Shown piece after piece: positions 16,668 through 54,940 of a DNA stretch of 64,000 bases. The notes beneath the pieces are model-generated. The model ran no database searches, was not told the origin of the DNA, and was given only the letters and a program-made list of their open reading frames with translations. Each line of letters begins with the position of its first letter. The first letter of the stretch is position 1. Where the stretch lies: contig JBAWWL010000009.1 of the NCBI GenBank assembly GCA_037146775.1, positions 68,575-132,574 on the forward strand. The letters run 5' to 3'. Both the position numbers and the translations under genes were made by a program. This stretch comes from Candidatus Omnitrophota bacterium. GTDB taxonomy: Bacteria; Omnitrophota; Gorgyraeia; Duberdicusellales; 4484-171.

Positions 16668-16691
16668 ATTTCCTCCTGTAGAATTTTATAA

Positions 16692-16853: not shown

Positions 16854-16857
16854 TTTA

Positions 16858-25719: not shown

Positions 25720-25745
25720 ATTAACCTCACTCCGTTTGGCAGAAA

Positions 25746-32839: not shown

Positions 32840-33193
32840 CGACCCTCCTCCACGGGCATGCCCGTGGCAACCACATCAGTAACATTCTGCTTATAACGAA
32901 ATTCATATGAGTGAATTCAAAATTCCAAGTACAAATTACAAACAAACTCTAAACACTAAACTCTAAATCCTAAATAAACTCAAAACGAAAAACTCAAAAT
33001 TAAAAACGATACTGGTTTGAGTTTGGAATATTTGAATTTTGGATTTGTTTAGGATTTAGGATTTCGGATTTAGAGTTTATCATAAGCCGTTACCGTTAAT
33101 CGGTTTTCACTACATACGACGTACTATGTACTACATACTATATACTCAGTACTCACTACTCACGACTATCTACCATGTACTACGTACGACATA

Positions 33194-33586
33194 CTATTTC
33201 ACTGCATATTTTCCCGCGCCCAACATCATAAGCGCCAAGCAGATGCACGCAATAACAAAAGTATATTCGAAACCTCCTTGCTGGATAAAAAATCCTTTAG
33301 ATAAATGCACGGTGGCTGCGGCTACCATGATAAATACCAATAATAATGCCGCCGCCAGTCTGGTCCAGAAACCAACCAGTAAACACACACCACCGATAAG
33401 TTCGCTGCAGGCCGCAATATAAGCCCACACCAAAGACGGTTTAAAACCAAGGCCTGAGAGCATCTGACTAAAACCATGCAGACCCGGACCGGAAAACAAA
33501 CCAAAACTTGCCTGCAAACCATGCCCGATAAACACAACTGCTAAACATAAACGTAAAACTAAAATAGCTACATCTGTCATATACAC
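33194..33586 (-). CDS. DoxX-family membrane protein
   Basis: MTDVAILVLRLCLAVVFIGHGLQ... matches the DoxX pattern. 130 aa with 4 TM helices. Confidence 0.7.
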   Translation of the reverse strand: MYMTDVAILVLRLCLAVVFIGHGLQASFGLFSGPGLHGFSQMLSGLGFKPSLVWAYIAACSELIGGVCLLVGFWTRLAAALLLVFIMVAAATVHLSKGFFIQQGGFEYTFVIACICLALMMLGAGKYAVK

Positions 33587-33659: not shown

Positions 33660-34784
33660 TCATGAAACTTTTGACAGCATCAAAGCCTTGAGCACGCCCA
33701 CCTTATTCCTCCAGCCATATAAACGATAGATACACATTAAAAAATGTAAAACTATCGCCAACCTCCCCTTCAAATGTATACCCATAACTTGGCCACAGGC
33801 CCTATTATTAGCCATGGGTATAATATAACCAAAATCAAAAGGCTGATACTCCTTAAATTCCAGGCCCTTGATACTGCGGATAACCTGTGCGCCGGCAAAC
33901 AAGCCTTGTGTAATAGCAAACTGTACTGCCATCCGCAAACAAGTATTACCATACGAAAAACAGGCAGCATCTCCGGCCACAAAAATACTCTCATGTGCTT
34001 TAAGCGACATATCAACTTTTAATCTACCCTGCGGATTCTTCCCTAAAGAAAGCTTCTGGATAAAATCAGCGCAACGCACGCCGGCCGTCCAGATAAGCAT
34101 ACTGTTATTATAGTTCGAAGAATCAGAAAACCGCAGGCTTCTTTCCTCTATTCTTTCGACAACCACGCCGGTAGCAACTTCGATATCCAGCATCCTAAGA
34201 TTATCCGAAACATAAGCTTTCATCCAATCCGGCAGTGGACCTAAAATTGAAACTGCGCGTTCAGCAATAATGATTCTACCCTTTTTTCCGTGGCGGTTAA
34301 GGTAACAACGCAGGCCACAAGCTACTTCTATGCCGCTATAGCCGGCGCCGGCTACAATAAAATTCTCGTATTGGTTCCGGCCTAATGCAGCGGTTATTTT
34401 CACCGCATCTTGCGCACTATCCAACGTGTATCCGTACTTTTTTACGGCATCGTTGCCGTAACTGTTTGTTTCGGTGCCGCTGGCAAGAATCAGATAATCA
34501 TACGGGAATACTGCGTCAGAGGTAATAACTTCTTTCTTTTCTGGATCCAAAGCAATAACTTCTTTATTGAAAAAACGAGCGCCGTATTTCAAAGCAATCG
34601 GCCCAAGCTCACAGGTTATAAAACGCGGGCTGATATTTCTGGCAAAACAATCAGGAAGTAACGGCAGAAAATCAAAGGTTTCTTTTTTGTCGATAAGAAG
34701 AATATCCAGAGGAACTTTTGCGCTTGCCAGCCGAACGAGTGCGGCTATGCCAGAAAATCCCGCGCCAACTATTATAATTCTCAT
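33660..34784 (-). CDS. NAD(P)/FAD-dependent oxidoreductase (type II NADH dehydrogenase / pyridine nucleotide-disulfide oxidoreductase-like)
   Basis: N-terminal IIVGAGFSG Rossmann motif and a second NAD-binding motif FIVAGAGYSGIE. 374 aa. Confidence 0.7.
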   Translation of the reverse strand: MRIIIVGAGFSGIAALVRLASAKVPLDILLIDKKETFDFLPLLPDCFARNISPRFITCELGPIALKYGARFFNKEVIALDPEKKEVITSDAVFPYDYLILASGTETNSYGNDAVKKYGYTLDSAQDAVKITAALGRNQYENFIVAGAGYSGIEVACGLRCYLNRHGKKGRIIIAERAVSILGPLPDWMKAYVSDNLRMLDIEVATGVVVERIEERSLRFSDSSNYNNSMLIWTAGVRCADFIQKLSLGKNPQGRLKVDMSLKAHESIFVAGDAACFSYGNTCLRMAVQFAITQGLFAGAQVIRSIKGLEFKEYQPFDFGYIIPMANNRACGQVMGIHLKGRLAIVLHFLMCIYRLYGWRNKVGVLKALMLSKVS

Positions 34785-35695
34785 CGTATAAAAATGGCAG
34801 CAATCATTATTACGCTTACCATTACCTGTATACAGATGGTAAGTTTCGAAGAAAGCATAAGTTTAGTTTTATCAAGATAGTGGTGTTTCAAAATACCTAT
34901 CGCTTTTACGGCAGGAAATATCCCCAGTAAAGAACATAGCGCAAACGGACTGACGTATCGGCGCTGGACCAGAACCACTATTGAAATAAATCCAGCCACG
35001 ACCAGCAGACGATAGAAAACATAAGCACGATCCAGGCCAAGAATACTTACCCAATTCATTTTTTTTGCCCTTACGTCGTCGCTATAATCAGGAATTTCGT
35101 TGGCAAAAAGAATCGCGGTAGTAAAAATACCGAAAGGAACAGACAAAAGAAAACTCTTCATGTCCGGGAATAGTTTTGTTTGGATAAAATAGCCGCCCAT
35201 GACTAACGCCGGGCCGAAGGTAAGAAAAATAATAAACTCACCACACCTACGGTAAGAAAACTGCAAAGGCTTATGTGAATATGACCAGCCCAACAAAAGT
35301 ATCACCAGATAATATCCGACAACACTTGAAGCCTTAAGCGTTATACTTAAACCAAGAACGCAAAAACCGGCCGCAAGGGCGGTGAACGCGGCTAAACGCT
35401 TAAAAAATAACTCGGAAAATACTTTTTCCTGAATAAGCTTGGAGCCGCCAAAAAATTTATAGAAATTTTTATCCTGCCAGTCCGCGCCGCTTTTTGAATC
35501 CGCGTAATCATTCATCAAATTAGCGCTCAAATGCGTGGCGATTACTGCCCCCAACCCAAATAAAAATGTTATTATATGAAAATTTTCTCTTACATACAAA
35601 GAACCAAAGATAAATGGTAATACACTTGCGCTTAAAAACGGCAGGCGCAAGGCGCGGGAAAGGTTCTTTATTGTAATTTTTTTATTTGCAGCCAT
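34781..35695 (-). CDS. UbiA-family prenyltransferase (candidate lycopene elongase-like or MenA-like)
   Basis: Polytopic membrane protein with an NDYADSKSGAD aspartate-rich motif. It is adjacent to carotenoid genes. Confidence 0.7.
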   Translation of the reverse strand: MAANKKITIKNLSRALRLPFLSASVLPFIFGSLYVRENFHIITFLFGLGAVIATHLSANLMNDYADSKSGADWQDKNFYKFFGGSKLIQEKVFSELFFKRLAAFTALAAGFCVLGLSITLKASSVVGYYLVILLLGWSYSHKPLQFSYRRCGEFIIFLTFGPALVMGGYFIQTKLFPDMKSFLLSVPFGIFTTAILFANEIPDYSDDVRAKKMNWVSILGLDRAYVFYRLLVVAGFISIVVLVQRRYVSPFALCSLLGIFPAVKAIGILKHHYLDKTKLMLSSKLTICIQVMVSVIMIAAIFIR

Positions 35696-42281: not shown

Positions 42282-43976
42282 TTATTTTTTAGGCGTTTCC
42301 AGCCGCATGTCGCATTGTATCTCAAACTGCTGCACATTATTAGCATGCCTGGACGAAACCAAGTTCGCCTCCAGGATATAAGATGTTTTCTCAAGTTGCC
42401 CCATAAAACCGGTCAAAACATCTTCTATGGGCGTGCCTTCTTCTAAAATAATACCTTTTAAGGTCAGAAATTGTTTTTGCCGGTCAAAAAACAACCCGTC
42501 TAAAACCATTTCTTTCGGTATTAAGCTGCTTATAAGTTTTAGCAGTCCATACACAGGAGCCCTATCCCGTTGTATAGCAACCAAAAGTTTTTCTCTTACT
42601 TCTATCTTAGTATTTAAATCTTTAATTAATTCTATGATACTCAGTTGCAGCTTGGCATTAGCTACGCGTTTCTTATAGTCATTCACATGAAAGTTAGCAA
42701 TGAAAAGCAAGAATAAAAATACTGCCACAGAGGTAACGGCTATAATCCGAAAAAATGCTTTTTGTCTTACTTCTGTTTTTTGTGCCTTAATTTCATAAGG
42801 CACTAAGTTTATATAATCTTGCTTCATAAATGCAGCGCCCAAGGCACTGCTAAACTGGTTTAAATTTTTAAAAAAGTTTTCCTTATCTTTTTCCTGAATG
42901 ACAATGCACTCCGGCAAAGGCAGCGGTTCAATCCTGACATTAAGTTCACCGGCCAAATACGTGCTGAGGTTTCTCAGATTAGCGCCGCCGCCAGTGACGT
43001 AAAGCAAAGAAGGCTGGTCTTCTTTAGAATTAGCGGCAAAATAGTTAAGAGAAAGTCTTAACTCTTTTACTAAATTTTCTAACTGCGGCCGCATTAAAGA
43101 CAAAATGTAAATCGCCGGAATATTATCCTTCAATACCTCCGAATTATCCTGAGGAATCCCAAATTCTTTTTTTATCTCTTCTGCTTTTTCCAAAGAAAGT
43201 TCAATTTTGCCTTTATCCGACATAAGGGCGCCTGTCAACGATTGAGTAACCTTATCGGAAGAAAACGACAGGGTTCTCATAAAGCAGGGCTTATTGTCGC
43301 GGAAAACGCAAAGAGTTGATTCATTATAACCGATATCCAACACAGCAAATATATGCGCATTATCACTGCTGCAGTTTAGTATCTGGGTATAATTGATCAG
43401 GGGTACTGAAATTTTGGTGACAGAAAGGCCACAGCCGATGACAATAGCTAAATACTTATCAACAAACTCACGCTTGGCGAAAACACACACCACATCGCTT
43501 TTCTTTACGCCATTGGCATCTGTGTATTCGCGCAACACCCTGGTATCCATCAGGGCCTTTTCTATATCAAACTGCACATCATCCTTTAACTGCCATTTTA
43601 CCGCTTGCGGGATTTCTTTTTCAGGGATAGAGGAAAGAGTTATTAGCTTAATCACGAGGGAATCAGGACTGGATACAGTTAAAATAGCTTCTTTGGTAGA
43701 TACGTCATTCCTACGTAGAAAATCGCTGATAAAACTTTTTATTTCCGTCAATCCTTCCTGTCCGGATAATACCTTTTTTAAATCATAGGACAAAAGCACA
43801 GGGATCGCGCCTTTGTATCCAATATAAACGATTTTTACAAAAGACTCGCCCCAATCAATAGAAATAAGCTTTTTTTTGTGTGTGGCAAAATCAAGTTTAC
43901 CTAAACCGGAAAAAATAGCCTTAGAATTTGATGTCTTTTGAGGTAATCCCTTGATTTTTCCGCTAAATAATTTCAT
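42282..43976 (-). CDS. pilMN: PilM-PilN fusion protein (actin-like ATPase-fold PilM fused to TM/coiled-coil PilN)
   Basis: The N-terminal roughly 380 aa are PilM-like (LISIDWGESFVKIV, TGGGANL). A TM helix (FFRIIAVTSVAVFLFLLFIANF) and a PilN-like C-terminal region follow. Confidence 0.7.
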   Translation of the reverse strand: MKLFSGKIKGLPQKTSNSKAIFSGLGKLDFATHKKKLISIDWGESFVKIVYIGYKGAIPVLLSYDLKKVLSGQEGLTEIKSFISDFLRRNDVSTKEAILTVSSPDSLVIKLITLSSIPEKEIPQAVKWQLKDDVQFDIEKALMDTRVLREYTDANGVKKSDVVCVFAKREFVDKYLAIVIGCGLSVTKISVPLINYTQILNCSSDNAHIFAVLDIGYNESTLCVFRDNKPCFMRTLSFSSDKVTQSLTGALMSDKGKIELSLEKAEEIKKEFGIPQDNSEVLKDNIPAIYILSLMRPQLENLVKELRLSLNYFAANSKEDQPSLLYVTGGGANLRNLSTYLAGELNVRIEPLPLPECIVIQEKDKENFFKNLNQFSSALGAAFMKQDYINLVPYEIKAQKTEVRQKAFFRIIAVTSVAVFLFLLFIANFHVNDYKKRVANAKLQLSIIELIKDLNTKIEVREKLLVAIQRDRAPVYGLLKLISSLIPKEMVLDGLFFDRQKQFLTLKGIILEEGTPIEDVLTGFMGQLEKTSYILEANLVSSRHANNVQQFEIQCDMRLETPKK

Positions 43977-43998
43977 ATTAAAAAAAATTACACCGATT

Positions 43999-44075
43999 AA
44001 CTAATCCCTGTCTACCGGCCCTCGTCTTCCCGTCTCGCCTTCGGCTCGCCGAGGCGGACGCCGCGAGGTGAGCAA
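43999..44075. repeat. GC-rich hairpin repeat (CCGGCCCTCG[T/G]CTTCCCGTCTCGCCTTCGGCTCGCCGAGGCGGACGCCGCGAGG[T/C]GAG). The second copy is at 46325..46400.
   Basis: The two copies are nearly identical over about 70 bp and contain nested inverted repeats CTCGCC...GGCGAG. Confidence 0.8.
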
Positions 44076-44099
44076 ACAGATGTATAATCATCTATTTAA

Positions 44100-44327
44100 T
44101 TAACCGTGTGTCTTAAATAAATAATAGGAGACGAACAAACACAAAGCAGAAGCCAGCAGAAGTGAAATGCCTACCCCTATTTTTAAATTATAAATCTTTT
44201 CTTCCGTTGTTACAAGCACTTTATTGGTTACCGCTTCAAGTTTGCGCAATCTTTGCGGCAAAAACAAAAGCAAAATACCAAAAATGAACGCAACCGTTCC
44301 CGCACAGATTAAAAATAACATATACAC
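44100..44327 (-). CDS. Small membrane protein
   Basis: 75 aa with two TM helices, lying inside the pilus cluster. Confidence 0.35.
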   Translation of the reverse strand: MYMLFLICAGTVAFIFGILLLFLPQRLRKLEAVTNKVLVTTEEKIYNLKIGVGISLLLASALCLFVSYYLFKTHG

Positions 44328-44329
44328 CT

Positions 44330-44425
44330 CCTTACTTTAGAATGATTACGCAGATTCTTAAAAAAGATTACACAGATTAATTAATCAGTGTAATCTATAT
44401 TTTAATCGGTGTAATCATTATAAGC
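44330..44425. promoter_or_regulatory. Cluster of GATTACACAGAT-type motifs (4 copies, both orientations)
   Basis: GATTACGCAGATT, AGATTACACAGATT, AATCAGTGTAATC and AATCGGTGTAATCATT lie between the PilX-like gene and the small membrane gene. Confidence 0.6.
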
Positions 44426-44437
44426 TTTACAGGATGT

Positions 44438-45673
44438 CTAGTATATCTCCTTCCAATCACTTGGCACATAAGCGCCCGGAACAAATGACGGTAAGCTGGC
44501 CAGTGACGACAATGCGTCGTCATGATGTATTGCTGACCCACCCCACATATTCATTGTATCACCGATAAATGAACCAAAGAGCCCTCCCTGGCCATGAAAA
44601 GTAAGGGCCCCGTTTGGAGCATAGACAGCTGCGTACATATCAGATTGCGAAGTAATAGCTATTGACTGCGACGTACCATTAGAACCATACATCTGAAAAT
44701 TGGAAGGTAAATAAGTAAGATTATTTATATCTCCTTTGATGTCTAGATTTCCAGCAAAATATACCACCACCGGCCCAGTGCTTGCGCTGGACACAACGAT
44801 AGCCCCGCCGCTTTTGACATCCATGGATGTGCTACCTGTAATATATATATTTGCCGGACCGGTTATTGTTATGGTATCCTTATTTTTAGGGGTGAATGCC
44901 GTATATTTATGATCACCAGTTATGGGGGTTGCCGTACTACTTATCGTACCTTCACCGGCAAGGCCTGTGAGTGAAGTTGGCACCACAACCGGCGGCAAAG
45001 TTACATTAGCATCATGAGCTATGCTCCCGGAAACAGCCGCAGCATTATTAAAAGTTCCTGATGGCCCGGTGGTAGCATTCCCGCCTATAGTAGCAGTGCC
45101 GCCAACAGTTATATCCGCATTCGTACCCACATCCCCGTGCAGACCAATATTTCCATCTACATTATATCTACCGATACTGGAATCATAGCTATCTGTAGCA
45201 GAATTGCCAGTCAAACCCGCTCCAATACTACTTCCTCCACCTGAACCGCCGCTGAATGATGCGTAGTTACCGAATAAGCTAGACTTCGTAACTTTAACAT
45301 ATACAACTCGTTTCGCTTGTTGCGTAGCTGTGCGCGAAGGAATATAGCCAATAGCAGTAATTTCCGGCGTAGTACCCGTGGGGCTGGCCATAGAGACATC
45401 ATAATCACCGTAGCCAGAAAGAGTTGCCTGTATTGTTTTGGGGTCGGTTCCGGACCAACCAGTCCAATCGGATTTGCTTAAAGCCAAAAGCCCCTTTTGG
45501 ATACCGGATTCAGCAAGATAAAAAGCCTGCTGGGACTGCATATAGTTTACGGAATTCATGGTGTTAGTACCTAAAAGAGAAACAATCGTTGCCGCCATAA
45601 CCGCGACTAAAAGCATAATCACCAAAGCAGCGATAATACTCACTCCTTTTTTGTTAGCCGCACAACGCATCAT
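44438..45673 (-). CDS. PilX-like pilus assembly/tip protein with a large Gly/Thr/Ser-rich C-terminal domain
   Basis: The N-terminal KKGVSIIAALVIMLLVAVMAATIV...NYMQSQQAFYLAESGIQ matches PilX_N (N-terminal helix plus the QQAF...AE motif). The C-terminal roughly 280 aa are GT-rich and repetitive (adhesin-like). Confidence 0.6.
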   Translation of the reverse strand: MMRCAANKKGVSIIAALVIMLLVAVMAATIVSLLGTNTMNSVNYMQSQQAFYLAESGIQKGLLALSKSDWTGWSGTDPKTIQATLSGYGDYDVSMASPTGTTPEITAIGYIPSRTATQQAKRVVYVKVTKSSLFGNYASFSGGSGGGSSIGAGLTGNSATDSYDSSIGRYNVDGNIGLHGDVGTNADITVGGTATIGGNATTGPSGTFNNAAAVSGSIAHDANVTLPPVVVPTSLTGLAGEGTISSTATPITGDHKYTAFTPKNKDTITITGPANIYITGSTSMDVKSGGAIVVSSASTGPVVVYFAGNLDIKGDINNLTYLPSNFQMYGSNGTSQSIAITSQSDMYAAVYAPNGALTFHGQGGLFGSFIGDTMNMWGGSAIHHDDALSSLASLPSFVPGAYVPSDWKEIY

Positions 45674-46191
45674 TGTAACCTCCTTGGGCTGACACCGCTT
45701 TTAAGAGCTAGCTGCGTTCCGCCAAGAGAAAAAGTTAAATCAATCACAACCCTTTTTATATCAGTATCGCTAGGGTTAACCTGGGGCGTAGCTATTTGTG
45801 CGCCCGCGCTGTTGTAATAGGTAAAAGATAAAGAACTTACATTATCTGCCAATTGATTAGAAGTAGCCCCTATAGTGCGCATAAGATGGCCTGAGGAAAG
45901 GTTAAAGGTGATATCGTTATCATTAATATCGATAAAACGAAAAGTAGAGCCACTAGCGGTTATAACGCTTGCCTTGCTTTTTATCTGACGCATCTCGCGG
46001 ATCATCTTATCCATGGCAAGGTTTGCACTTTCCGACATAGTGTTGCGGTCTACGGCAAGCCGCCAACCGTCAACAACAGCAAACATAAGCGGCGCAGTGA
46101 CGGCAAAAGTAATACCTAAAAGCACGACAACGATAATAATTTCTAATAATGTAAACCCAGGTATTAATGGAAAATGCTTTTTCCCGCTCAT
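45670..46191 (-). CDS. Minor pilin / pseudopilin (PilW/GspJ-like) with a prepilin N-terminus
   Basis: PGFTLLEIIIVVVLLGI prepilin cleavage/methylation motif. Confidence 0.65.
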   Translation of the reverse strand: MSGKKHFPLIPGFTLLEIIIVVVLLGITFAVTAPLMFAVVDGWRLAVDRNTMSESANLAMDKMIREMRQIKSKASVITASGSTFRFIDINDNDITFNLSSGHLMRTIGATSNQLADNVSSLSFTYYNSAGAQIATPQVNPSDTDIKRVVIDLTFSLGGTQLALKSGVSPRRLQ

Positions 46192-46244
46192 TGATAATTA
46201 GTTGACAAGTATTGTAACATCGTTGACTTTAAATTAGAAATTAT

Positions 46245-46445
46245 TAAAACCATAAACACTAAACTCTAAATCCTAAATAAACTCAAAACTAAAAACTCAA
46301 AACGATAATGTTTTGAGTTTGTTTACCTGCCTGCCGGCCCTCGGCTTCCCGTCTCGCCTTCGGCTCGCCGAGGCGGACGCCGCGAGGCGAGTAGGCAGGG
46401 AGTTTAGGATTTCTGGTTTAGGGTTTGACATAATCTTGTTTCGAA
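46245..46445. repeat. Composite intergenic element: AT-rich inverted arms (AAACTCTAAATCCTAAATAAACTCAAAAC ... GAGTTTAGGATTT...GGTTTAGGGTTT) around the GC-rich hairpin core
   Basis: A large imperfect palindrome. The same AT-rich arms recur at 32925-33085 and, in degenerate form, at 10990-11130. The GC core recurs at 43999-44075. Confidence 0.75.
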
Positions 46446-46497
46446 TTTCGAGTTCAATGTTCAATAAATCTTTTTCGGGTAAACGATGCCTTGACGT

Positions 46498-46848
46498 TCA
46501 ATAATTAGTCTTTAGAAACGCGAGCCATACGCTGCCTATAGCAACGTGATAAACCCTGACCTCAACAATCTTGTTATCAGCGTTGACGCTGGTAATCGTA
46601 ACCTGATAGCTGTAACCGGAAAAATTTCCGCTGTAGCTTTGCAAAGATTCGTTGACCGCTCCGGCGAAACCTGTTCCTATAATCCGCTCAGCTTCTTTTT
46701 CAGCCAGAAGTGTTGCTACCGACATAACTCGCGGCTTATGGATATTTGAAAGGACCTGCTGCATGGTTACGGCCAGACCTAAAAATGATACGCCGACGAT
46801 GACAATTACCATAATGACTTCGACAAGAGTAAAAGATTTTTTATTCAT
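46498..46848 (-). CDS. Minor pilin / pseudopilin (PilV/GspI-like). The start is taken at MNKKSFTLVEV.
   Basis: KSFTLVEVIMVIVIVGV prepilin motif. About 117 aa. Confidence 0.6.
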   Translation of the reverse strand: MNKKSFTLVEVIMVIVIVGVSFLGLAVTMQQVLSNIHKPRVMSVATLLAEKEAERIIGTGFAGAVNESLQSYSGNFSGYSYQVTITSVNADNKIVEVRVYHVAIGSVWLAFLKTNY

Positions 46849-46866
46849 TTTAATAAAAGATTGCAC

Positions 46867-46932
46867 CGATTTTACGAAAGATTACACAGATTTCTAAACC
46901 AAAAACAATCTGTGCAATCTGTGATATACAGA
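46867..46932. promoter_or_regulatory. GATTACACAGAT-type motif cluster (3-4 copies)
   Basis: GATTGCACCGATT, AGATTACACAGATT and AATCTGTGCAATCTGTGATATACAGATTA. Confidence 0.6.
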
Positions 46933-47283
46933 TTAAAACATAAACCGCTTTACCTGACAACTCTTATTGCCGAAATTAACCAATAAACCAACATGTAAGT
47001 CAGACACCTTTAAATACGAAAGTAACTGATATTTAAACACCTCTGGAGTATCACCGGTTAGAGCTTTAATTTCTACAATAACCTTGTCTAGTACGATCAA
47101 ATCTAACTTAAAAGAGCCTATTTTTTTATCTTGAAAAGAAACCGTAAATTCCTTTTCTGTTTGATATTCTAAACCTGCCGATTTTAATGCAAGCTTTAGT
47201 GCATTGTGATATATCTTTTCCTTAAAACCAGGCCCTAGCTCAGAGTGAACTTTAAAGCAACAAGAAATTATTTGCTCAGTCAA
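46933..47283 (-). CDS. GxxExxY family protein
   Basis: 116 aa. CCFKVHSELGPGFKEKIYHNAL...GLLVNFG matches the TIGR04256 GxxExxY pattern. It is inserted between two pilin genes and flanked on both sides by motif clusters. Confidence 0.75.
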   Translation of the reverse strand: MTEQIISCCFKVHSELGPGFKEKIYHNALKLALKSAGLEYQTEKEFTVSFQDKKIGSFKLDLIVLDKVIVEIKALTGDTPEVFKYQLLSYLKVSDLHVGLLVNFGNKSCQVKRFMF

Positions 47284-47436
47284 AGGATCTCTGCTATCCT
47301 TCTCCAGTTTTCCCCCTAAATCTGTGTAATCTATTAGGGCGTCACAAAAGTGCCGCCCTTGATTACGCAGATTAAAAATCCGATTACACAGATTAAAAAC
47401 ATCGTCGGTATTATCTGTGTAATCTTTATGAAATAT
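47284..47436. promoter_or_regulatory. GATTACACAGAT-type motif cluster (5 copies)
   Basis: AAATCTGTGTAATCTATT, GATTACGCAGATTAAAAATCCGATTACACAGATTAAAAA and TTATCTGTGTAATCTTT. Confidence 0.6.
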
Positions 47437-47976
47437 CTACTGGACCTTCCCCGTATTCGGTTCAACGGTAACTACCACTCCTGTGTTTAAGGTCACCACA
47501 CCTTGGCTGAAAAGCACCGTTACTGCGCCGCCGCCAGGGCCACAACTACAAGGCGTTCCCGCAGCATTAAAAACAAGGCCGTTACCAATGCCGTCAAAAT
47601 TTGCCTGGACAATACTCACTCCATGATATTCGCCTACACCTAAATTTACGGTAAAATTTACTTTGGTTAAAGGGTCGGAAGTTATGCTCCAGGTGCCGGG
47701 ACTTGATTCATAATAGACACTGTAGCTATTGGAAGAGGCATCAAAATAAATCCTTGTCTTCTTTTGGGAACTTAGAGCGTAACTTTGCGTATATCTGATG
47801 TCGGATTTAATTTTTGTGGCCGCCTGAGTAACGCGTATTTGCTCTAGATAATGCTTGGGGCTTAAAGCTACAACGCCAACGATCGCGATTATTAAAAAAG
47901 TAATGACTAGTTCTATAAGCGTGAAACCATTTGGATTCTTTAGTTCAATAAGTTTAATTTGTCTTAAGCCTACCAT
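47437..47976 (-). CDS. GspH/FimT-like pseudopilin
   Basis: NGFTLIELVITFLIIAIVGVVAL prepilin motif. 179 aa. Confidence 0.65.
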   Translation of the reverse strand: MVGLRQIKLIELKNPNGFTLIELVITFLIIAIVGVVALSPKHYLEQIRVTQAATKIKSDIRYTQSYALSSQKKTRIYFDASSNSYSVYYESSPGTWSITSDPLTKVNFTVNLGVGEYHGVSIVQANFDGIGNGLVFNAAGTPCSCGPGGGAVTVLFSQGVVTLNTGVVVTVEPNTGKVQ

Positions 47977-48175
47977 ATTAAATTCGAAGCAAGATTTTAA
48001 ATCACTGAAAGAGCTGCGTCAACCGGTTACGGTTACTCGTCTTGCTAAAGTTTCGGCGAAAGAGAATAAAAAGTATAAAAAATCATAAAAGCAGGAAAGC
48101 AGGTTAGGCTTTTATGCCGCACCTGCTTTCCTTAATTTAGTATAAATTCTTCTTTAGTGTTAGTCTTTATGCTGT

Positions 48176-48553
48176 TTATTTCAAAGAACCGTCTGTGCTG
48201 CTGTAAGTGTAAGTGGTGCCTGCCGGACCCGTATAAGTAGTAGCGCTGGCCTTAGTCCAATCTGCCGTTACCGGTTGCGCAAGCACATTATCAAAACACT
48301 TATTAGTAGTAGTGCAGGCTCCGGTAAAGCTTGTAGTCTCTAAAGATGACGGATACGCGCAAGTTCCACCATTACACTCATTCGCATAATAGGTGCTGAT
48401 TCCTGAACGCACGCCGCCAACCACGCCTTTTTCTGCAGCGGTTTTAGCATTAGCCTGTAAATCGAAATATTTTGGTATTGCTACTGCGGCCAAAATTCCC
48501 AAGATAACAATAATCATAACCAATTCAATAAGCGTAAAACCCCTTCTCTTCAT
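48176..48553 (-). CDS. pilA: Type IV major pilin PilA. The start is taken at MKRRGFTLIEL.
   Basis: RGFTLIELVMIIVILGILAAVAIPKY is a textbook type IVa pilin N-terminus. A C-terminal Cys pair is present. About 125 aa. Confidence 0.75.
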   Translation of the reverse strand: MKRRGFTLIELVMIIVILGILAAVAIPKYFDLQANAKTAAEKGVVGGVRSGISTYYANECNGGTCAYPSSLETTSFTGACTTTNKCFDNVLAQPVTADWTKASATTYTGPAGTTYTYSSTDGSLK

Positions 48554-48699
48554 GACTAGACCTCCTCCTTTTACATTACCCATATTCTATACTCAAAAAT
48601 ACCTTATAAATTTGACCAGTGCTATTTATTCTGGCTTAAACTTATCTCTTATCCCTAAGCTCGGATAACTGCTATATTTTATAATATCTATCTTCAAAA

Positions 48700-48821
48700 T
48701 GCAAAAACTATTTTTACTTTTTTAAAATGATTACACCGATTAATGAATTTGTGTAATCTTGGCGTCACTATGCCATCTAATCTGTGTAATCTTTTAAAAA
48801 TCTGTGTAATTTATTATAAAA
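48700..48821. promoter_or_regulatory. GATTACACAGAT-type motif cluster (4 copies) upstream of pilA
   Basis: AATGATTACACCGATTAATG, TTGTGTAATCTTG, TAATCTGTGTAATCTTTT and AAATCTGTGTAATTTAT. Confidence 0.6.
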
Positions 48822-50039
48822 CTATTTTTGAAATAATTGCATCAAATTCCACATCGGCAAAAATATGCCCAGCGCCATCAATAAAACCCCGCAGCCAAGC
48901 ACAAGCAACAACATCGGCTCAATCAAAGAGGTAAGGTTATCAATCATAAAACCCGCCTCGGCATCATAATAATCTGCTACATGCAATAATAATTCGTCTA
49001 CCTTTCCGGTATCTTCACCCACAGAAACCATCTGTGTTACTACAGGAGTAAACATGCCGCTTGTTTTCATTGACTCGGCCATCCCCTTGCCTTCACTAAC
49101 TCCAACTCCAATGCTCGCTATTGCGCGGGATATTACCGTATTATTTACGCCTTGGGCGGAAAGATCCATGATCCTTAAGATAGGCACGCCTGCGCGCATC
49201 ATAGTTCCTGTAACCTTGGCAAATCTTCCCATTTCTATTTTAATCATGAGCGAACCAAAAACCGGAAATTTCAATCGCAGGCTATCCCACCAAAGCCTAC
49301 CCTTCTTGGTAGCGGTAAGTCTACGAAAACCATAGATTAAAGCTGCGATAATAATAATCAGTGCCCACCAGAATTTTGTAACCGCCTTATTTGTCCAAAT
49401 GAGGATTAAAGTAGGCAGCGGCAAGTTTACGCCGGCAGACATATATACTTTCGCAAAGCGCGGAACAATCAAAAGAGTCAAAATTAAAAAAGCAATACTT
49501 ATGGCAACGACGACTATGATAGGGTATCTGGTTGCTCCCTTGATGCGCGAATTAACTTTCGCGTCATACTCTCTCAAATCTGCCAACCTCTCTAAAGCCT
49601 CGACAAGAGTTCCACTCTCTTCCCCCACCTTAACCATATTTGTGTATAAAGAGTCGAACAGTTTCGGATGATTTTCAAAAGCAGCAGAAAGGCTTTTACC
49701 TGAGTTTATATCTATCGCAATATGATCGAGCGTTTCTTTAAAAACCTTATTTGTGGACTGGTTGCTCATCGCGTTAAGGCTTGCAATAACACTTACCCCC
49801 GCCTTCTGCATTACGGCAAATTGACGCGTAAACATATTTAATTCCGTAGGCCTTACTTTTCTAAAAAGCTTTGTAAAGATTTTATCGAATCCTGACTCTT
49901 TTCCGGCTACCTCGATAGAAACCGGTATAAAATCGGCTTCTTTTAATTTGTCGGCAACCGCGCCCTCTGAAGCAGCCTCCATAAATCCGCTAGTAAGCTT
50001 TGCGAATTTATCCCTAGCTTTATATTGATACTTAATCAT
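48822..50039 (-). CDS. pilC: Type IV pilus platform protein PilC (GspF family)
   Basis: 405 aa with two GspF repeats and 3 TM helices. Lies downstream of pilB. Confidence 0.85.
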   Translation of the reverse strand: MIKYQYKARDKFAKLTSGFMEAASEGAVADKLKEADFIPVSIEVAGKESGFDKIFTKLFRKVRPTELNMFTRQFAVMQKAGVSVIASLNAMSNQSTNKVFKETLDHIAIDINSGKSLSAAFENHPKLFDSLYTNMVKVGEESGTLVEALERLADLREYDAKVNSRIKGATRYPIIVVVAISIAFLILTLLIVPRFAKVYMSAGVNLPLPTLILIWTNKAVTKFWWALIIIIAALIYGFRRLTATKKGRLWWDSLRLKFPVFGSLMIKIEMGRFAKVTGTMMRAGVPILRIMDLSAQGVNNTVISRAIASIGVGVSEGKGMAESMKTSGMFTPVVTQMVSVGEDTGKVDELLLHVADYYDAEAGFMIDNLTSLIEPMLLLVLGCGVLLMALGIFLPMWNLMQLFQK

Positions 50040-51709
50040 TATTCCACCTTTGTTACGCGTAGCACTTCTTCGGCGGTCGTAATACCCTTAATCGCTTTTT
50101 CTAAACCGTCTTTATACAGTGCCTTCATTCCCGATTCAACGGCTTTATTCATTATCTGGTCAGCAGAAGCCTTATTGTTAATCATCTCCCTGATGGCATC
50201 ATTGATTAACAGCATTTCATATACACCAATTCTTCCGCGATAACCGGTATTCTTGCATTCCGGGCACCCCTTGCCGCGATAAAGCTCTTGTTTTGGAGCC
50301 ATGCCTAAATCTTTCAGAACAGATGCGTCAGGCGAATATTTTTCCTTACATTTTTCACAAATTTTTCTAACTAATCTTTGCGCAAGTATACCTATAACAG
50401 AACTAGAAATTAAAAATGGTTCTACCCCCATATCTATTAAACGCGCCAAAGATGATGGCGCATCGTTGGTATGTAAAGTCGAGAGAACCAAATGTCCGGT
50501 CAAAGAAGCTTGTATGGCAATTTCGGCCGTTTCTTTATCGCGTATTTCGCCAACCATGATGATGTCCGGATCTTGACGTAATATCGCGCGCAAGCCATCG
50601 GCAAAAGTTATGCCCGCCCGAGGATTCACTTGAGTCTGCCTGATCAAGGGCAACTCGTATTCAACCGGGTCTTCTATGGTAATGATATTCTTTTCCATGG
50701 TACTGATAGTGCTTAACGTTGAATATAACGTGGTGGTTTTGCCGCTTCCGGTTGGACCGGTAACTAAAATTATGCCGTTAGGGTGACGGATAAGTTTATC
50801 GAAAATTGTAAGTTCGTCTTTGTCAAACCCTAAGTCTTCCAACCCCAAAACAACTGCCGACTTATCTAATAACCGCATTACTACATTTTCGCCATGTATG
50901 GTCGGAAAGGTAGAAACCCTCACATCCAAATCTTTATTCTGCACTTTCAAGCGGATCCTGCCATCTTGGGGTTTTCTACTTTCGGCAATATCCATCCCCG
51001 ACAGCAGCTTTATCCTGGAAGCAATAGCCCGATGCAGGTGCTTGGGAAAAGTGTAGGCCTCATGCATAATTCCGTCTATTCTGTTACGCACCCTTGACGC
51101 GCCATGCTCCGGCTCGACATGTATATCGGAAGCCCTGTCTTTGACTGCCTGCATAAACATCATATTAACCAACTTAATGACCGGCGCCTCTTCAACAATT
51201 TCGGACAAATCTTTCTCTTCTTCTGTACCAACCTTCTTCGTCTCTATAGACTTAACTATTTCGCTTATAGAACCGCCGACAACGTAATAATAATCTAAAA
51301 TCCGCTGTATGCCTTTCTCGGTAGTAAGGACCGGGTCGATAGAATCCTTTTTGCTCACTTTCCGCACCTGATCCAACGCGACAATATCCTGCGGGTTAAC
51401 CATAGCCACAGTAAGGCTTTGACCGATCATAAAAAGCGGCACCACTTTGTATTTCTTCGCGATATTTTCGGGAATTAGCTTTACTAGTTCACTGTCAATA
51501 ATATAATCTTTTAAATCCATGAAAGGGACATTTAGGTGTACGGCAAGTGCGCTCGCAATATCATCCTCACTGATAAAACCCAATTTTTCCAGTGCCCGAT
51601 CAAGAGAAAGCCCGGTACGCTTAACCTCATCTTGTGCTTTAGTAAGTTGCTCCTGGGTAATTAAGCCCTTTTCCAGTAATAGATTAACTATTTCAAAATT
51701 TCCTGCCAT
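50039..51709 (-). CDS. pilB: Type IV pilus assembly ATPase PilB (GspE family)
   Basis: N-terminal GSPII domain. Walker A is VTGPTGSGKTTTL, with an Asp box, Walker B and a CPECKNTGYRGRIGVYE tetracysteine motif. Confidence 0.85.
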   Translation of the reverse strand: MAGNFEIVNLLLEKGLITQEQLTKAQDEVKRTGLSLDRALEKLGFISEDDIASALAVHLNVPFMDLKDYIIDSELVKLIPENIAKKYKVVPLFMIGQSLTVAMVNPQDIVALDQVRKVSKKDSIDPVLTTEKGIQRILDYYYVVGGSISEIVKSIETKKVGTEEEKDLSEIVEEAPVIKLVNMMFMQAVKDRASDIHVEPEHGASRVRNRIDGIMHEAYTFPKHLHRAIASRIKLLSGMDIAESRKPQDGRIRLKVQNKDLDVRVSTFPTIHGENVVMRLLDKSAVVLGLEDLGFDKDELTIFDKLIRHPNGIILVTGPTGSGKTTTLYSTLSTISTMEKNIITIEDPVEYELPLIRQTQVNPRAGITFADGLRAILRQDPDIIMVGEIRDKETAEIAIQASLTGHLVLSTLHTNDAPSSLARLIDMGVEPFLISSSVIGILAQRLVRKICEKCKEKYSPDASVLKDLGMAPKQELYRGKGCPECKNTGYRGRIGVYEMLLINDAIREMINNKASADQIMNKAVESGMKALYKDGLEKAIKGITTAEEVLRVTKVE

Positions 51710-51795
51710 ATTTTTCTCCTTTTAATAAATGATTACACGGATTAAGTCAAGATTACACAGACCTATTAATCGGTGTAATCATTTTTTTTCTAAGC
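51710..51795. promoter_or_regulatory. GATTACACAGAT-type motif cluster (3 copies) upstream of pilB
   Basis: AATGATTACACGGATTAAG, AAGATTACACAGACC and TTAATCGGTGTAATCATT. Confidence 0.6.
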
Positions 51796-52167
51796 TCAAG
51801 CCTCTTTTACCAATTCTTTTATTTTTGTAAGTAAAGCCTGCGGATCGAAAGGCTTAGTAACGTAAGCATTGGCACCGGTTTCTTCACCCATCTTTTTGTC
51901 GGATTCCTGCGCGCGGGCGGTAAACATAATAATGGGTATATGCTTATATTTCTCATCAAATTTAAGCATCCGGCATACTTTATAACCGTCTATCTTGGGC
52001 AGCATAAGATCTAGTATGATCAGGTCGGGTTTTTCTTTTCTTGCCTTGTCTAGCCCCACAAAACCATCGTGGGCGGAGATTACCTCATAACCATTTGCCT
52101 CCAAGCGAAAAGTTACTGTCTCTACCAAATCTTTCTCGTCGTCAATAATTAAAATTCTTTTTTTCAT
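51796..52167 (-). CDS. Response regulator receiver protein (single domain). The start is taken at MKKRILIID.
   Basis: ILIIDDEKDLVE...PDLIILDLMLPKIDGYKVCRMLK...IIMFTARA is a CheY-like receiver. The longer ORF upstream overlaps the kinase gene, so it is rejected. Confidence 0.75.
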   Translation of the reverse strand: MKKRILIIDDEKDLVETVTFRLEANGYEVISAHDGFVGLDKARKEKPDLIILDLMLPKIDGYKVCRMLKFDEKYKHIPIIMFTARAQESDKKMGEETGANAYVTKPFDPQALLTKIKELVKEA

Positions 52168-52168
52168 T

Positions 52169-53485
52169 TTACCGCTCACTCTTTCTAATATCTCTGGGCA
52201 ATATGACGCTAAATTTGCTTCCTTTACCGATTTCTGAATCGAGCCGTACCTGGCCGCCATGTACATCAACGATACCCTTGACGATAGAAAGCCCGAGGCC
52301 AGTACCTGGAACTTCTCCTCTGGCATGCATTGCCATACGGTGGAACCGGTCGAAAATTTTTTCAAAATCCTCGCGAGGAATCCCCATGCCAGTATCAATA
52401 ACGGTAATTTCTACCATCTCTCCCTTCTCTTCAACGCCTACTTCTACTTTTCCTTTCGGCCTGTTATATTTAATAGCATTATCAACAAGATTGGTCACCA
52501 CCTGCGTAAGTTTATCCGGATCTCCCCAAATCTCAATAGGTACACCGGGTAATATACTGGTAAAGAGAAGCCCTTTTTCCCTGGCAAGCGGACTTAAGGA
52601 GCTTGCAACGGTTTTCACCATTCCGGCAACATCAAAAAGCTTTCTCTTCGCCGGCGCCTTCTTCGCGTCAAGCTTGGCCAGCTCAAGCAACTCATCAATA
52701 AGGCGGCCGAGACGCTCGATATTCTGTTTTGCCACCTCAAGAAATCTTTTCTGTTCTTGCGTAATTTGCCCGGTCATCCCCTCCAGGAGAAGGCCAACCG
52801 CTTCTTTAATTGCGGTTAATGGGGTACGCAGTTCGTGTGAAACATTGGAAACAAAATCAGACTTAAGCTGATCTCGGGAACGTGCTTCTTCCTGAAGCCT
52901 GGCATTCTCGATAATAACCGCGGCAAAATCAGCGATGGTCTTTAGAATATCTAAATCCTCTTCTCGAAAAACTTCCTTAGTTATCTTGTTGTTTACATTA
53001 ATAACACCGATAACCCTGTCACGTACTTTAAGGGGGACGCTAAGCAAAGAATTGGTATAATACCTTCCGTTACTGCGCTTAGAAAATCTTGAGTCGCGGT
53101 CCAGGTCTTTAATAAGAAGGGGTTCTCCTGTCATCGCGATCCAGCCGGCAACGCCTTCGCCAAGTTTTATTTTGGCTTCTCTAATAATTTCGTCGTTGAG
53201 CCCCTTAGCAAACTTTATCACTAAACCGCCCTTGTCCGTATCCAAAAGCATCAGAGATACAATTTCCACCGATAAAAGATCGGCGATCCTGTTCGCCAAA
53301 ATCCTGAGGCATTTCTCAAAATCAAACACAGAAGACGCCTCTTTGCCGATATGATACGCGGCCGCCAGCTCAAAAAGACGGCGCTCAAGTATGTCTCGAT
53401 TCTGCCGGTGCATGTCGTCAACCATGGTTTTTATTTCAAAATTATCTGCTACCGCGCTTATGCTTTCCTGTAATTTATCTTTCAT
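52169..53485 (-). CDS. GAF-domain sensor histidine kinase
   Basis: GAF (residues about 40-190), HisKA (SHELRTPL) and HATPase (DNAIKYN...GTGLGLSIVK). Confidence 0.8.
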   Translation of the reverse strand: MKDKLQESISAVADNFEIKTMVDDMHRQNRDILERRLFELAAAYHIGKEASSVFDFEKCLRILANRIADLLSVEIVSLMLLDTDKGGLVIKFAKGLNDEIIREAKIKLGEGVAGWIAMTGEPLLIKDLDRDSRFSKRSNGRYYTNSLLSVPLKVRDRVIGVINVNNKITKEVFREEDLDILKTIADFAAVIIENARLQEEARSRDQLKSDFVSNVSHELRTPLTAIKEAVGLLLEGMTGQITQEQKRFLEVAKQNIERLGRLIDELLELAKLDAKKAPAKRKLFDVAGMVKTVASSLSPLAREKGLLFTSILPGVPIEIWGDPDKLTQVVTNLVDNAIKYNRPKGKVEVGVEEKGEMVEITVIDTGMGIPREDFEKIFDRFHRMAMHARGEVPGTGLGLSIVKGIVDVHGGQVRLDSEIGKGSKFSVILPRDIRKSER

Positions 53486-53488
53486 ACC

Positions 53489-53884
53489 TCACCTCTTGCC
53501 GCTTGACAACTTTTCTTCTATCATATGAAGCGTTGATTTCAACACACTCTGCATATCGCTATACATGCTCATTTTAGGAATATACGTGCTCACCCCTAAC
53601 TGTTCCGCCCCCTTAATAGAGCGCTCATCAGGATAAGCAGTCATCATAACAACCGGGATACTTGCGGAAATTTTTCTTATTTCTTTTAAGGTCTTAATAC
53701 CGTCCATCTCGGGCATCATATAATCCAAAATAACGATATCGGGCTTCTTGGTTTGCATAATACCTAACGCATCCTTGCCGTTTGAAGCCGTAATAGCACC
53801 ATACCCCCAACTTTTGATTCTAGTTGCCATCAGCTCAAGAAAATCATGCTCATCATCTACCAACAGAATTGACGGCTTTGCCAT
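53489..53884 (-). CDS. Response regulator receiver protein (single domain)
   Basis: ILLVDDEHDFLE...PDIVILDYMMPEMDG...VVMMTAY. Confidence 0.75.
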   Translation of the reverse strand: MAKPSILLVDDEHDFLELMATRIKSWGYGAITASNGKDALGIMQTKKPDIVILDYMMPEMDGIKTLKEIRKISASIPVVMMTAYPDERSIKGAEQLGVSTYIPKMSMYSDMQSVLKSTLHMIEEKLSSGKR

Positions 53885-54069: not shown

Positions 54070-54588
54070 TTACTTTTTATATTTAGCTAACTCCGCTTCA
54101 AGCTCTTTTATTTTGTTTTTAAGTTCGATCATCTTTAATTCGCGACCAATGGCAACATCGTTAAAAATCTTAAGCTGCCTGTTTTTTTCAATAAATTCCA
54201 GGTAAATCTTCCTGATACGCATCATTACTTCGACCTTGGCGATAAGTTCGTCTAAGTTATCCGGCATATAAAAATATTCTTCCGCCCCACTGTCCAGCAA
54301 CGCTTTCAGCTTATCCGCAATATCTTTATAGGTGGCAGAAACGCAAATAATCGGAATATAGCGCGTTTCTTCCTTGTGTTTCAAGATGTGTATCATTGTG
54401 AATCCATCCATTATAGGCATCGCCAGGTCGGTAACAATAATATCAATCTCTCGTGTCTGAGCTATTTTTAGCCCCTCTTCGCCGTTTCCGGCATCTATGA
54501 CGGTATATTGTGCGTCTTCGAGCGCCTTTTTATAAATGGCTTTCTTAGTTTCGCTGTCCTCAACAAGTAAAATTAAACCTTTGGTCAT
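54070..54588 (-). CDS. Response regulator receiver with a C-terminal coiled coil
   Basis: ILLVEDSETKKAIY...IDIIVTDLAMPIMDG...ICVSAT, followed by a C-terminal helical region ELKNKIKELEAELAKYKK. Confidence 0.7.
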   Translation of the reverse strand: MTKGLILLVEDSETKKAIYKKALEDAQYTVIDAGNGEEGLKIAQTREIDIIVTDLAMPIMDGFTMIHILKHKEETRYIPIICVSATYKDIADKLKALLDSGAEEYFYMPDNLDELIAKVEVMMRIRKIYLEFIEKNRQLKIFNDVAIGRELKMIELKNKIKELEAELAKYKK

Positions 54589-54940
54589 TGTTCCTCCTTT
54601 TGCCGATACGATCGGACTAAGGCGTAATCCTTGCTAAAAAAATAGCTATCGTCCAACACATTTCTTTATTCTTCCCAACAACCCATCAAAAACAATCATC
54701 CAACAAACTGGCTATATTTTATATTTTTAATTTTTGATATTTGATATTTAATTTTTCTGACCCTTCCTGCCTACTAACCTATCAACATACTAACCTATCA
54801 ACCTATATTCTTTCCCCAAATAATTCGTTAATCATTTAATCCGTTAATTCTTTAACCTACTAACCTATCCACCTATCAACATATCAACCTACATAATACT
54901 CACAACTATATACTATGTACTCAATACTCACGACTATATA

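Follow-up and report, generated by a model that had tools for sequence, protein, structure and literature searches.

Among described systems, those closest to the one reported here are the repetitive extragenic palindromes (REPs) and REP doublets forming hairpins (REPINs) that go with RAYT enzymes, and the miniature inverted-repeat transposable elements (MITEs) that go with a parent transposon. Here we analyse a 64,000-nt stretch of the genome of a Candidatus Omnitrophota bacterium (contig JBAWWL010000009.1, positions 68,575 to 132,574; henceforth the window), where a 12-bp motif and its dyad recur throughout a type IV pilus locus that also holds a gene of the GxxExxY/PDDEXK_3 family. We think it likely that the motif is the subterminal repeat of a cassette of ~430-490 bp that carries the GxxExxY gene, together with gene-less copies of that cassette.

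The likeness to REP/REPIN-RAYT systems extends to short palindromic repeats that are dispersed between the genes of a genome, often within operons, and that form stem-loops, to a small nuclease-type gene bracketed by inverted repeat copies, to the lack of target-site duplications and to gene-less units that far outnumber the gene. However, the gene bracketed here codes for a PD-(D/E)XK protein (PF13366) rather than an IS200/IS605-like Y1 HUH transposase; its repeat unit is a non-palindromic 12-13-mer in direct pairs, whereas REPs are self-complementary with a GTAG head; the gene-carrying unit appears to be mobile, with different contexts in close relatives; and the repeat spans many phyla, whereas REPs are species-specific. 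With MITEs and parent transposons that have multiple subterminal sites (IS21, Tn7, Mu and inverted repeat/direct repeat-type Tc1-mariner elements) the locus shares non-coding derivatives with the terminal inverted repeats of a gene-carrying parent, two binding-site-like repeats per end at ~two helical turns from each other, outer ends that mostly read 5'-TG...CA-3' and intermediates with decayed genes; unlike them, it shows neither target-site duplications nor a DDE, serine or tyrosine transposase, and its insertions are almost always sense, between co-directional genes. Since the enzyme is not of the Y1 type and target-site duplications are missing, the system would work like REPIN-RAYT and MITE-parent pairs while being a member of neither. 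Intervening sequences of 23S rRNA with PF05635 four-helix-bundle open reading frames (ORFs) resemble it in placing a small ORF within inverted repeats inside a transcribed unit, but the host here is a protein-coding operon (the window holds no rRNA gene) and the repeat is conserved in sequence, not merely complementary; presumably, the TIGR04256 description puts GxxExxY proteins in 23S rRNA intervening sequences, too. Cyanobacterial short tandemly repeated repetitive (STRR) heptamers and the bacterial interspersed mosaic elements (BIMEs) of E. coli are similar as intergenic arrays of 7-9-nt units and mosaics of palindromic units, yet we know of no cognate gene of the GxxExxY kind for either, and their sequences are unrelated.

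The evidence for a cassette comes from 80 metagenomic loci (L122-L201) that encode relatives of the GxxExxY protein of the window at 47-81% identity. In 78 of these loci a motif copy is found no more than 150 bp from the gene, and the gene-adjacent 23.7 kb contain 322 copies as opposed to 52 in the other 209 kb of the same loci, a 55-fold ratio in density. Its polarity is fixed: 151 '+' and 7 '-' copies lie upstream of the gene, 9 '+' and 155 '-' copies downstream, and 69 of the 80 loci combine '+' upstream with '-' downstream. Copies are usually found at -50 and -28 from the start ('+') and at +3 and +24 after the stop ('-'), and the strict ++[gene]-- layout recurs in 43 units of 430-493 bp. 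Their sole ORF, 116-124 aa long, has a start codon that shares bases with the inner repeat or comes immediately after it (...GATG or ...GATT ATG) and a stop 2 nt before the inverted repeat. As we propose it, the element would consist of two units of T-GATTACACNGATT plus A-rich tail, the GxxExxY ORF and the same two units inverted. Within host operons the gene is co-directional with its downstream neighbour in 70 of 71 cases and with its upstream neighbour in 56 of 62, and it is never convergent with both; in six of the metagenomic loci, rpsK and rpsD enclose the cassette.

Distant family members of isolates occupy comparable sites on finished replicons, namely between fabD and fabG in Sphingomonas, between radA and the gene for a FAD-dependent protein in Bacteroides finegoldii, and between ade and a mannose-1-phosphate guanylyltransferase gene in Bernardetia. 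Short-period arrays of related sequences (GACGCWGATTWCGC, CACAGAGGA, ACACAGAGA) flank the gene in a Planctomycetota clade, Bacteroides and Bernardetia, and are inverted across it in the latter two, while Treponema has a single inverted ACACGGATTCG copy per side. Distant clades keep the same architecture with other repeat sequences - GATTCCAGYGAT (L192), GATTCCTGAGATT (L135), TTTTAGACGCWGATTWCGCWGATTACGC (Planctomycetota clade), ACACGGATTCG (Treponema), ACACAGAGA (Bernardetia) and CACAGAGGA (B. finegoldii) - and variants of the flanking repeat across the family include GATTACACA, GACGCAGATTACGC, CACAGAGGA and ACACGGATTCG. Such variation of the repeat with the protein clade would most economically be read as the mark of a cognate pair of nuclease and ends.

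Accessory hairpins flank many cassettes and modules (L128, L134, L136, L143, L167, L193; L004, L029, L065, L086, L104, L111). Those on the left are of the type AGACATCC..GGATGTCT or AGGCTGTTGA..TCAACAGCCT, those on the right of the type AGGTATAAT..ATTATACC or AGAGATTGTTGA..TCAACAAGCTCT; the right one stops just before the AGGAGG of the host gene, and the hairpins are kept while their sequences vary.

Gene-less copies were searched for in GTDB species-representative genomes with the two-copy pattern GATTRCRCNGATT-N6-11-GATTRCRCNGAT, for which we calculate ~1-2 chance matches. At least 120 genome loci in more than 15 phyla match: Nitrospirota, Desulfobacterota and other 'Deltaproteobacteria', Bacteroidota (with many Mucilaginibacter isolates), Omnitrophota, Elusimicrobiota, Planctomycetota, Acidobacteriota, Gemmatimonadota, Magasanikbacteria of the candidate phyla radiation, Firestonebacteria, Stahlbacteria, Cloacimonadota, Atribacterota, Chloroflexota, Clostridia, and Alpha- and Gammaproteobacteria. 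At least eight of the listed loci come from one metagenome-assembled genome (MAG; JACRNI01). Among the 120 loci listed are 49 complete ++-- modules of 50-95 bp, which have the form of cluster B in the window (see below); being short, non-coding and equipped with the terminal inverted repeats of the 430-493 bp units, the modules have the make-up of MITEs. They usually fill a gap entirely, to within 5-20 bp of both genes, and these are co-directional in 86, convergent in 17 and divergent in 8 of the loci listed. The flanking genes are unrelated housekeeping genes (recA, lpxC, trpA, aroA, aroC, gatB, glpX, queA, ATP synthase genes and others), and a Pfam census of them over the 120 listed loci found no family more than three times and no pilus theme. 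Where copies separate coaD, pilB and pilT in turn, with a further module upstream of recG (L100), this is a matter of copy density, not of function. Because the modules have the same ends as the gene-bearing cassettes, we regard them as two ends without cargo. Four loci represent intermediate stages of gene loss, as seen from what is left between the arms: a degraded whole GxxExxY gene (L102), a 3' fragment of it (L059), and loops that still encode ...QVKQFMF-stop, the family C-terminus (L081), or ...KIMF-stop (L103). A Gemmatimonadales MAG (L037, 4241-6930) has a ~2.7 kb tandem array in which '+' and '-' clusters alternate every 130-140 bp, some copies being contiguous 9-bp repeats.

Back in the window, where every gene of this region is read from the minus strand, the pilus locus and its repeats are arranged as follows, in the order of transcription:

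51796-52200, minus strand: receiver-only response regulator gene, first in transcription order
51731-51780: cluster E, gene-less module (51731+, 51751+, 51769-) that fills the gap between response regulator and pilB
50039-51709, minus strand: pilB
48822-50039, minus strand: pilC
48729-48811: cluster D, gene-less module (48729+, 48747-, 48780-, 48800-) in the pilC-pilA gap
48176-48583, minus strand: pilA
47437-47976, minus strand: GspH/FimT-like pilin gene
47320-47424: cluster C2, four copies, the outer part (47361-47424) being a gene-less partial module (47361+, 47382+, 47413-)
47335-47358: GC-rich hairpin AGGGCGGCAC-TTTT-GTGACGCCCT, read from the sequence, between the partial module and the upstream repeat of the cassette
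47320-47331, minus strand: left (upstream) end repeat of the cassette, followed by GGGGGA (Shine-Dalgarno-like) and then the ORF
46933-47283, minus strand: GxxExxY/PDDEXK_3 gene, between the FimT-like pilin and the minor pilin
46922-46934, minus strand: degenerate right (downstream) end repeat of the cassette, overlapping the stop codon of the GxxExxY gene
46859-46919: cluster C1, partial module without gene (46859+, 46880+, 46908-), flanked by the cassette and the minor pilin gene
46498-46848, minus strand: minor pilin gene
45670-46191, minus strand: PilW-like gene
44438-45673, minus strand: PilX/DUF7305 gene
44344-44416: cluster B, complete module without gene (++--, 6-nt centre) that separates the PilX-like gene from the 75-aa ORF
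between the PilX/DUF7305 gene and pilMN, minus strand: 75-aa ORF
43986-44090: cluster A (tentative), one + copy (43986-43997) and a degenerate inverted partner (~44077-44090), just upstream of pilMN
42282-43976, minus strand: pilMN, last in transcription order

With up to two mismatches, GATTACACAGAT has 26 matches in the window as against 4.08 +/- 2.0 in dinucleotide-preserving shuffles, none of 100 of which reaches 26; for the dyad form of the 12-mer, there are 20 matches with 1.5 expected. A scan with a position-weight matrix built from independent motif copies yields 19 strong matches to GATTACAC[N]GATT in six clusters, all at 43986-51780 and all outside long ORFs; the only overlap of copy 46859-46870 is with a GTG-extended version of the minor pilin ORF, which probably starts with the ATG at 46848. 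A previous, sequence-only reading of this DNA, which had seen the 12-bp motif and its dyad clustered in the pilus locus and confined there to intergenic DNA, is borne out on both counts. Its statement that every intergenic gap holds the motif applies to six of the eight gaps, the other two (46192-46497 and 47977-48175) containing other repeats in its place. Likewise, the claimed absence from the rest of the 64 kb is correct for clusters but overlooks one strong, isolated copy without a partner (TGATTACGCGGATT, 35498-35509, inside a 304-aa ORF at 34781-35695), which is either a chance match or a relic. And although the 12-bp motif is real, the repeat unit is longer, ~21-22 bp, and comprises GATTACACNGATT plus an A-rich tail. 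The assignment of cluster A is tentative given its degenerate partner, and the pair is interrupted by a 73-nt GC-rich hairpin element (44007-44079).

The gene-bearing copy, which we would place at 46922-47331, can be followed in gene orientation from the partial module (47424-47361) through the hairpin (47358-47335), the left repeat, GGGGGA, the gene and the right repeat (46934-46922) to the module at 46919-46859 and the ATG of the minor pilin; read this way, cluster C1 and the outer part of C2 are both + - -. The left repeat (47320-47331) fits the canonical layout found in 78 of the 80 related loci. The right one, AATCTGTATATCA, differs from the consensus AATCTGTGTAATCA by one mismatch and a 1-nt deletion, and its position is that of the '+3 after stop' repeat of canonical cassettes. 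In-frame codons upstream to ~47304 still encode the family N-terminus, (L)EKDSRDP, with CTG in place of ATG, and the start is either CTG or TTG at 47283. In addition to this copy, the pilus locus would hold about five gene-less derivatives, MITE- or REPIN-like in kind.

In the motif copies themselves, direct neighbours are 19-23 bp apart (two helical turns) and face the centre of their cluster; neighbouring copies of opposite orientation form ~90 convergent pairs and only 3 divergent ones. Gaps at the centre are most often 16-17 nt long, and lesser maxima occur at 6 and 26-27 nt. With an ORF that directly borders the inner repeats, the usual centre of 16-17 nt makes more sense as a pair of A-rich repeat tails facing each other; for the same reason, precise deletion of an ORF that left its leader behind is ruled out. 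Outer copies usually have a T before them, so that element ends read TG...CA. The 12-mer is not self-complementary, the inverted arms being made of direct pairs. At the variable positions 5, 7 and 9 paired arms agree no more than shuffled partners do, and the spacers of the two arms are non-complementary (38% identity versus 50% in controls), from which it follows that the 12-13-mer is conserved as a sequence and not as a stem; a conserved RNA or DNA hairpin as the cause of conservation is ruled out by this lack of covariation. Taken together, sequence conservation, two-turn spacing, centre gaps and TG...CA ends would suit a protein that reads double-stranded DNA. None of the known elements considered (DnaA, IHF, Fur, Fis, Pho box, dif/Xer, integron attC, Tn5 mosaic end) fits the motif. 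Highly iterated palindrome (HIP1)-type GCGATCGC sites number only two in the window, which speaks against a cyanobacterial origin of this DNA. In Rfam the region has no match, whether at gathering score or at E <= 5, and two modules with long loops yielded nothing but chance hairpin matches for their interiors; our literature search met no paper with the 12-mer in a relevant context.

As for the protein, the family assignment of the window's GxxExxY gene product is firm (PF13366, E = 3e-34, 118 bits with a cut-off of 22; TIGR04256, 125.6 bits with a cut-off of 35). Residues E22 (the E of GxxExxY), Y25, D61, E71 and K73 are invariant in 38 homologues, which speaks for strong purifying selection on the nuclease active site, and the catalytic core E...D...ExK is intact in the window protein. 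Its AlphaFold model (mean predicted local distance difference test score, pLDDT, 87) has a restriction-endonuclease-like, Cas4/Hjc-like fold, the best structural matches being Cas4 SSO0001 (4ic1, E = 2e-4) and the Holliday-junction resolvase Hjc (2wiw); the PD-(D/E)XK homing endonuclease I-Bth0305I is among the weak fold matches. The protein is identical to an NCBI entry (P0001) from a Candidatus Omnitrophota MAG, and hundreds of relatives, 70-87% identical, are found on separate contigs. A survey of the superfamily lists GxxExxY/PF13366 as of unknown function and with 'multiple transfers'. This survey was all that our literature search for GxxExxY, PF13366 and TIGR04256 returned, with no link of the family to any DNA repeat, and a search on intervening-sequence proteins brought up nothing on flanking repeats.

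Related pilus operons differ in which gaps hold motif copies. With PilC proteins 59% identical to that of the window, L206 and L207, from a related Omnitrophota genome, have the same pilus gene order, gaps of 3-38 bp and no motif. A closer relative (L202, PilC 80% identical) has a 126-bp pilC-pilA gap free of the motif and carries copies upstream of pilB and downstream of pilA instead. In L205 (PilC 61% identical) the site between the FimT-like and minor pilin genes, where the window has its cassette, is taken by a PF05635 '23S rRNA IVP' gene (L205 2890-3320) bracketed by inverted heptamer arrays, (AGTCATA)n ... (TATGACT)n. The closest homologues of the GxxExxY protein (87% and 82% identity) are encoded among unrelated genes, and several of their assemblies break 28 bp before the GxxExxY gene.

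How such a cassette might spread is a question on which we are close to evenly divided, with a slight leaning to doubt. The following scenario may be envisaged: the GxxExxY protein, a minimal Cas4/Hjc-like PD-(D/E)XK nuclease, would bind the repeats as double-stranded DNA and cut at the ends, and would in this way move or copy its own cassette and, in trans, gene-less copies, leaving no target-site duplications. By analogy, this mobilisation may be likened to REP/REPIN-RAYT or MITE-transposase pairs. The GxxExxY gene itself would be expressed by read-through from the host operon. Gene-less derivatives, probably two ends joined head to head over 50-95 bp, have become wedged into an operon that is tightly packed in a relative. 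For the pilus genes, the copies are probably passengers rather than operators, and their likely side effect would be strong stem-loops between the cistrons of the polycistronic mRNA.

Several observations weigh against this explanation or parts of it. The cassette of the window has a degenerate right end and lacks an ATG, and its five modules share only the repeats and neither spacers nor loops, which implies that they are not recent copies of one master element. Among the 120 genome loci listed a single one has an intact GxxExxY gene, gene-less copies vastly outnumbering gene-bearing ones, and a second clade includes loci such as L218 in which the gene has direct repeats to either side. Over the 49 complete modules there is no excess of direct duplications of 2-9 bp at any tested offset, and cut-and-paste transposition with target-site duplications is ruled out by their absence. 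No solved structure of a GxxExxY family member is detectable by sequence. Finally, phage-like viral contigs from IMG/VR (L227-L265) contain the paired motif 39 times, exclusively in the form of direct pairs, of which a single contig has many on one strand; 31 are antisense and 5 sense to flanking genes, and the surroundings lack a GxxExxY gene. Such a strand-biased pattern of direct pairs is not what symmetric transposon ends would lead one to expect; for this part of the family, a strand-specific role (RNA or single-stranded DNA) or a status as 'solo ends' is possible. A GC-rich variant of the motif in IMG/VR has an extra conserved head (TTTCCCGCA-GATTACGCGGAT-TGGGGCGCA-GATTACGCGGATT).

The strand bias of these viral solo pairs would sit well with a different explanation, by which the modules are host-serving RNA elements of the REP/BIME type, that is, intercistronic stem-loops that stabilise or terminate transcripts or direct their processing by RNase III-type enzymes, with the GxxExxY gene as an 'intervening-sequence' passenger excised as RNA whose protein moves no DNA. 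Folding of the transcribed strand lends it substance: the modules of the window reach -19 to -27 kcal/mol with z = -2.4 to -7.5 (cluster B, -26.6 kcal/mol, z = -7.5; cluster E, -20.9 kcal/mol, z = -6.4), so the operon mRNA should carry strong intercistronic stem-loops, as with REP elements. In addition, modules fill gaps inside operons, the gene is always sense, many cassettes have accessory hairpins, variable in sequence, at their flanks and right ahead of the host Shine-Dalgarno sequence, and L205 has its 23S_rRNA_IVP gene at the same pilus site. A hairpin has no need, however, of a 12-mer sequence that is kept across phyla, nor does RNA function account for arms without compensatory covariation and with non-complementary spacers, for a strict polarity in which copies are convergent and almost never divergent, or for a nuclease active site under strong purifying selection; moreover, related compact operons manage without modules. 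To our minds, the host-serving RNA scenario is unlikely.

About as improbable, we feel, is a homing scenario, in which the palindromic modules form an independent repeat family, mobilised otherwise or arisen from slippage, whose centre is invaded by the GxxExxY gene as a parasite akin to homing nucleases. The gene does lie exactly at the module centre in every case, gene-less modules are far more numerous and wider spread than gene-bearing ones among the loci listed, PD-(D/E)XK homing endonucleases do exist (I-Bth0305I being the weak fold match noted above) and module centres also harbour other small genes and GC-rich hairpins. But insertion into a ready-made centre would split its 16-17-nt loop, and this is not seen on either side of the gene; rather, the first and last codons of the ORF overlap the inner repeats. 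ORF remnants in otherwise gene-less modules show that gene loss does occur, and a repeat that differs between protein clades fits a cognate pair of protein and ends better than it fits a generic target.

The operator set proposed by the sequence-only reading, by which the pil genes would be controlled through repeats bound by a dedicated transcription factor such as one of the adjoining response regulators, is hardly credible, although the crowding of some six clusters into 8 kb (with one isolated copy as the sole occurrence in the remaining 56 kb), the ~21 bp two-turn spacing without arm covariation and the clusters upstream of pilB and pilA are what protein-bound operators might look like, because the same module adjoins unrelated housekeeping genes in more than 15 phyla, lies between convergent (17) more than divergent (8) genes and at 3' ends, brackets GxxExxY genes wherever these are found, is missing from the syntenic L206/L207 operon and is placed elsewhere in L202, and because the adjacent regulators are receiver-only. 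The latter holds for all three response regulators (51796-52200, 53489-53884 and 54070-54588), and the signalling block at 51.8-60.3 kb comprises only receiver-only regulators, kinases and PAS/GAF proteins, with no DNA-binding output domain. Nor are the sites kept at the promoters of orthologous genes, and nothing indicates that the modules regulate pili; the motif belongs to a longer repeat that is dispersed and has no tie to pilus genes. Its other suggestion, a locus-specific MITE, was right in kind but not as regards specificity for the locus, and the GxxExxY gene it had taken for an insertion is to all appearances the element's own cargo. It was also right that pilA lacks a sigma-54 promoter: no TGGCAC-N5-TTGC element with up to two mismatches occurs in 48584-48821 upstream of the gene. 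A sigma-70-like site, TTTGCA-18-TAAAAT, is present at 48705-48676, between cluster D and pilA.

The explanation we favour, a gene-bearing cassette with gene-less copies, removes the false lead of a 'pilus regulon' motif and provides the GxxExxY/PDDEXK_3 family, with its thousands of members, with a concrete DNA partner. If the protein acts on the repeats, we would be dealing with a compact unit of gene plus ends that colonises operons without disrupting them, and to which some of the short-period palindromes between the genes of many uncultured phyla could be traced. Going further, GxxExxY proteins might be the mobilising enzymes of pan-bacterial selfish cassettes that are delimited by inverted short-repeat arrays (7-9-nt period) and placed sense in operons; their gene-less derivatives might constitute a large share of the palindromic short repeats that fill intergenic DNA in Omnitrophota, Planctomycetota, Bacteroidota, Nitrospirota and others, as a nuclease-only counterpart of REPIN-RAYT, and '23S rRNA IVP' genes may be a parallel system with arrays of their own. 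We put this forward as a speculation that we ourselves doubt rather than believe. For annotation, it matters that the modules break assemblies (contigs end there) and inflate operon gaps, and that they are not to be read as promoters or operators.

Other repeats abound in the window. Nearly every sizeable intergenic gap is filled with other arrays of 7-8 nt repeats, a forward array being followed by its reverse complement, of the types (R)GTCAGA / TCTGAC(Y), TACTATG, AAACTCT / AGAGTTT and CTATCAA. They fall into four groups:

16673-16856, 25726-25931, 27584-27660, 29547-29651: short-period arrays, group 1
4643-4704, 9558-9605, 11537-11577, 33108-33197, 54890-54937: short-period arrays, group 2
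10994-11127, 32912-33078, 46247-46302, 46400-46430: short-period arrays, group 3
54770-54894: short-period arrays, group 4

The AAACTCT array is common to another Omnitrophota MAG (L119), and Tandem Repeats Finder (TRF) shows such arrays to be common but diverse in other loci. An IS200-like Y1 transposase gene (PF01797, E = 3.5e-26; 29138-29557, minus strand) has a start codon that abuts an array of 11-12 CTCTGTC-type heptamers (29560-29644), a family that also makes palindromic arrays at 16.7, 25.8 and 27.6 kb; gene and heptamers look like a genuine REP-RAYT-like pair in the same genome. A 23S_rRNA_IVP gene (PF05635, E = 6e-30; 6421-6765, minus strand) adjoins a palindromic 8-mer array at 6778-6856 (TAGAACAA ... 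TTGTTCTA).

The 73-nt GC-rich element that interrupts cluster A has a second, 90% identical copy at 46326-46398. At ~70% G+C in a 42% G+C genome it folds with ~-40 kcal/mol, and each copy is at the centre of a different palindromic module. It has no Rfam match and was not found in the loci through L226, while Logan contig L001 ends inside it; shorter hairpins of the CCTGCCTGCCGGCAGGCAGG type are found inside modules of L006 and L099. A gene for a pyrimidine-dimer DNA glycosylase (PF03013; 40624-41067, minus strand) lies just downstream of the pilus assembly genes. Lastly, a 36-nt inverted repeat (86% complementary; 11509-11544 and 48025-48060) links the pilA-fimT gap with the repeat-rich gap at 11 kb and represents a dispersed element.

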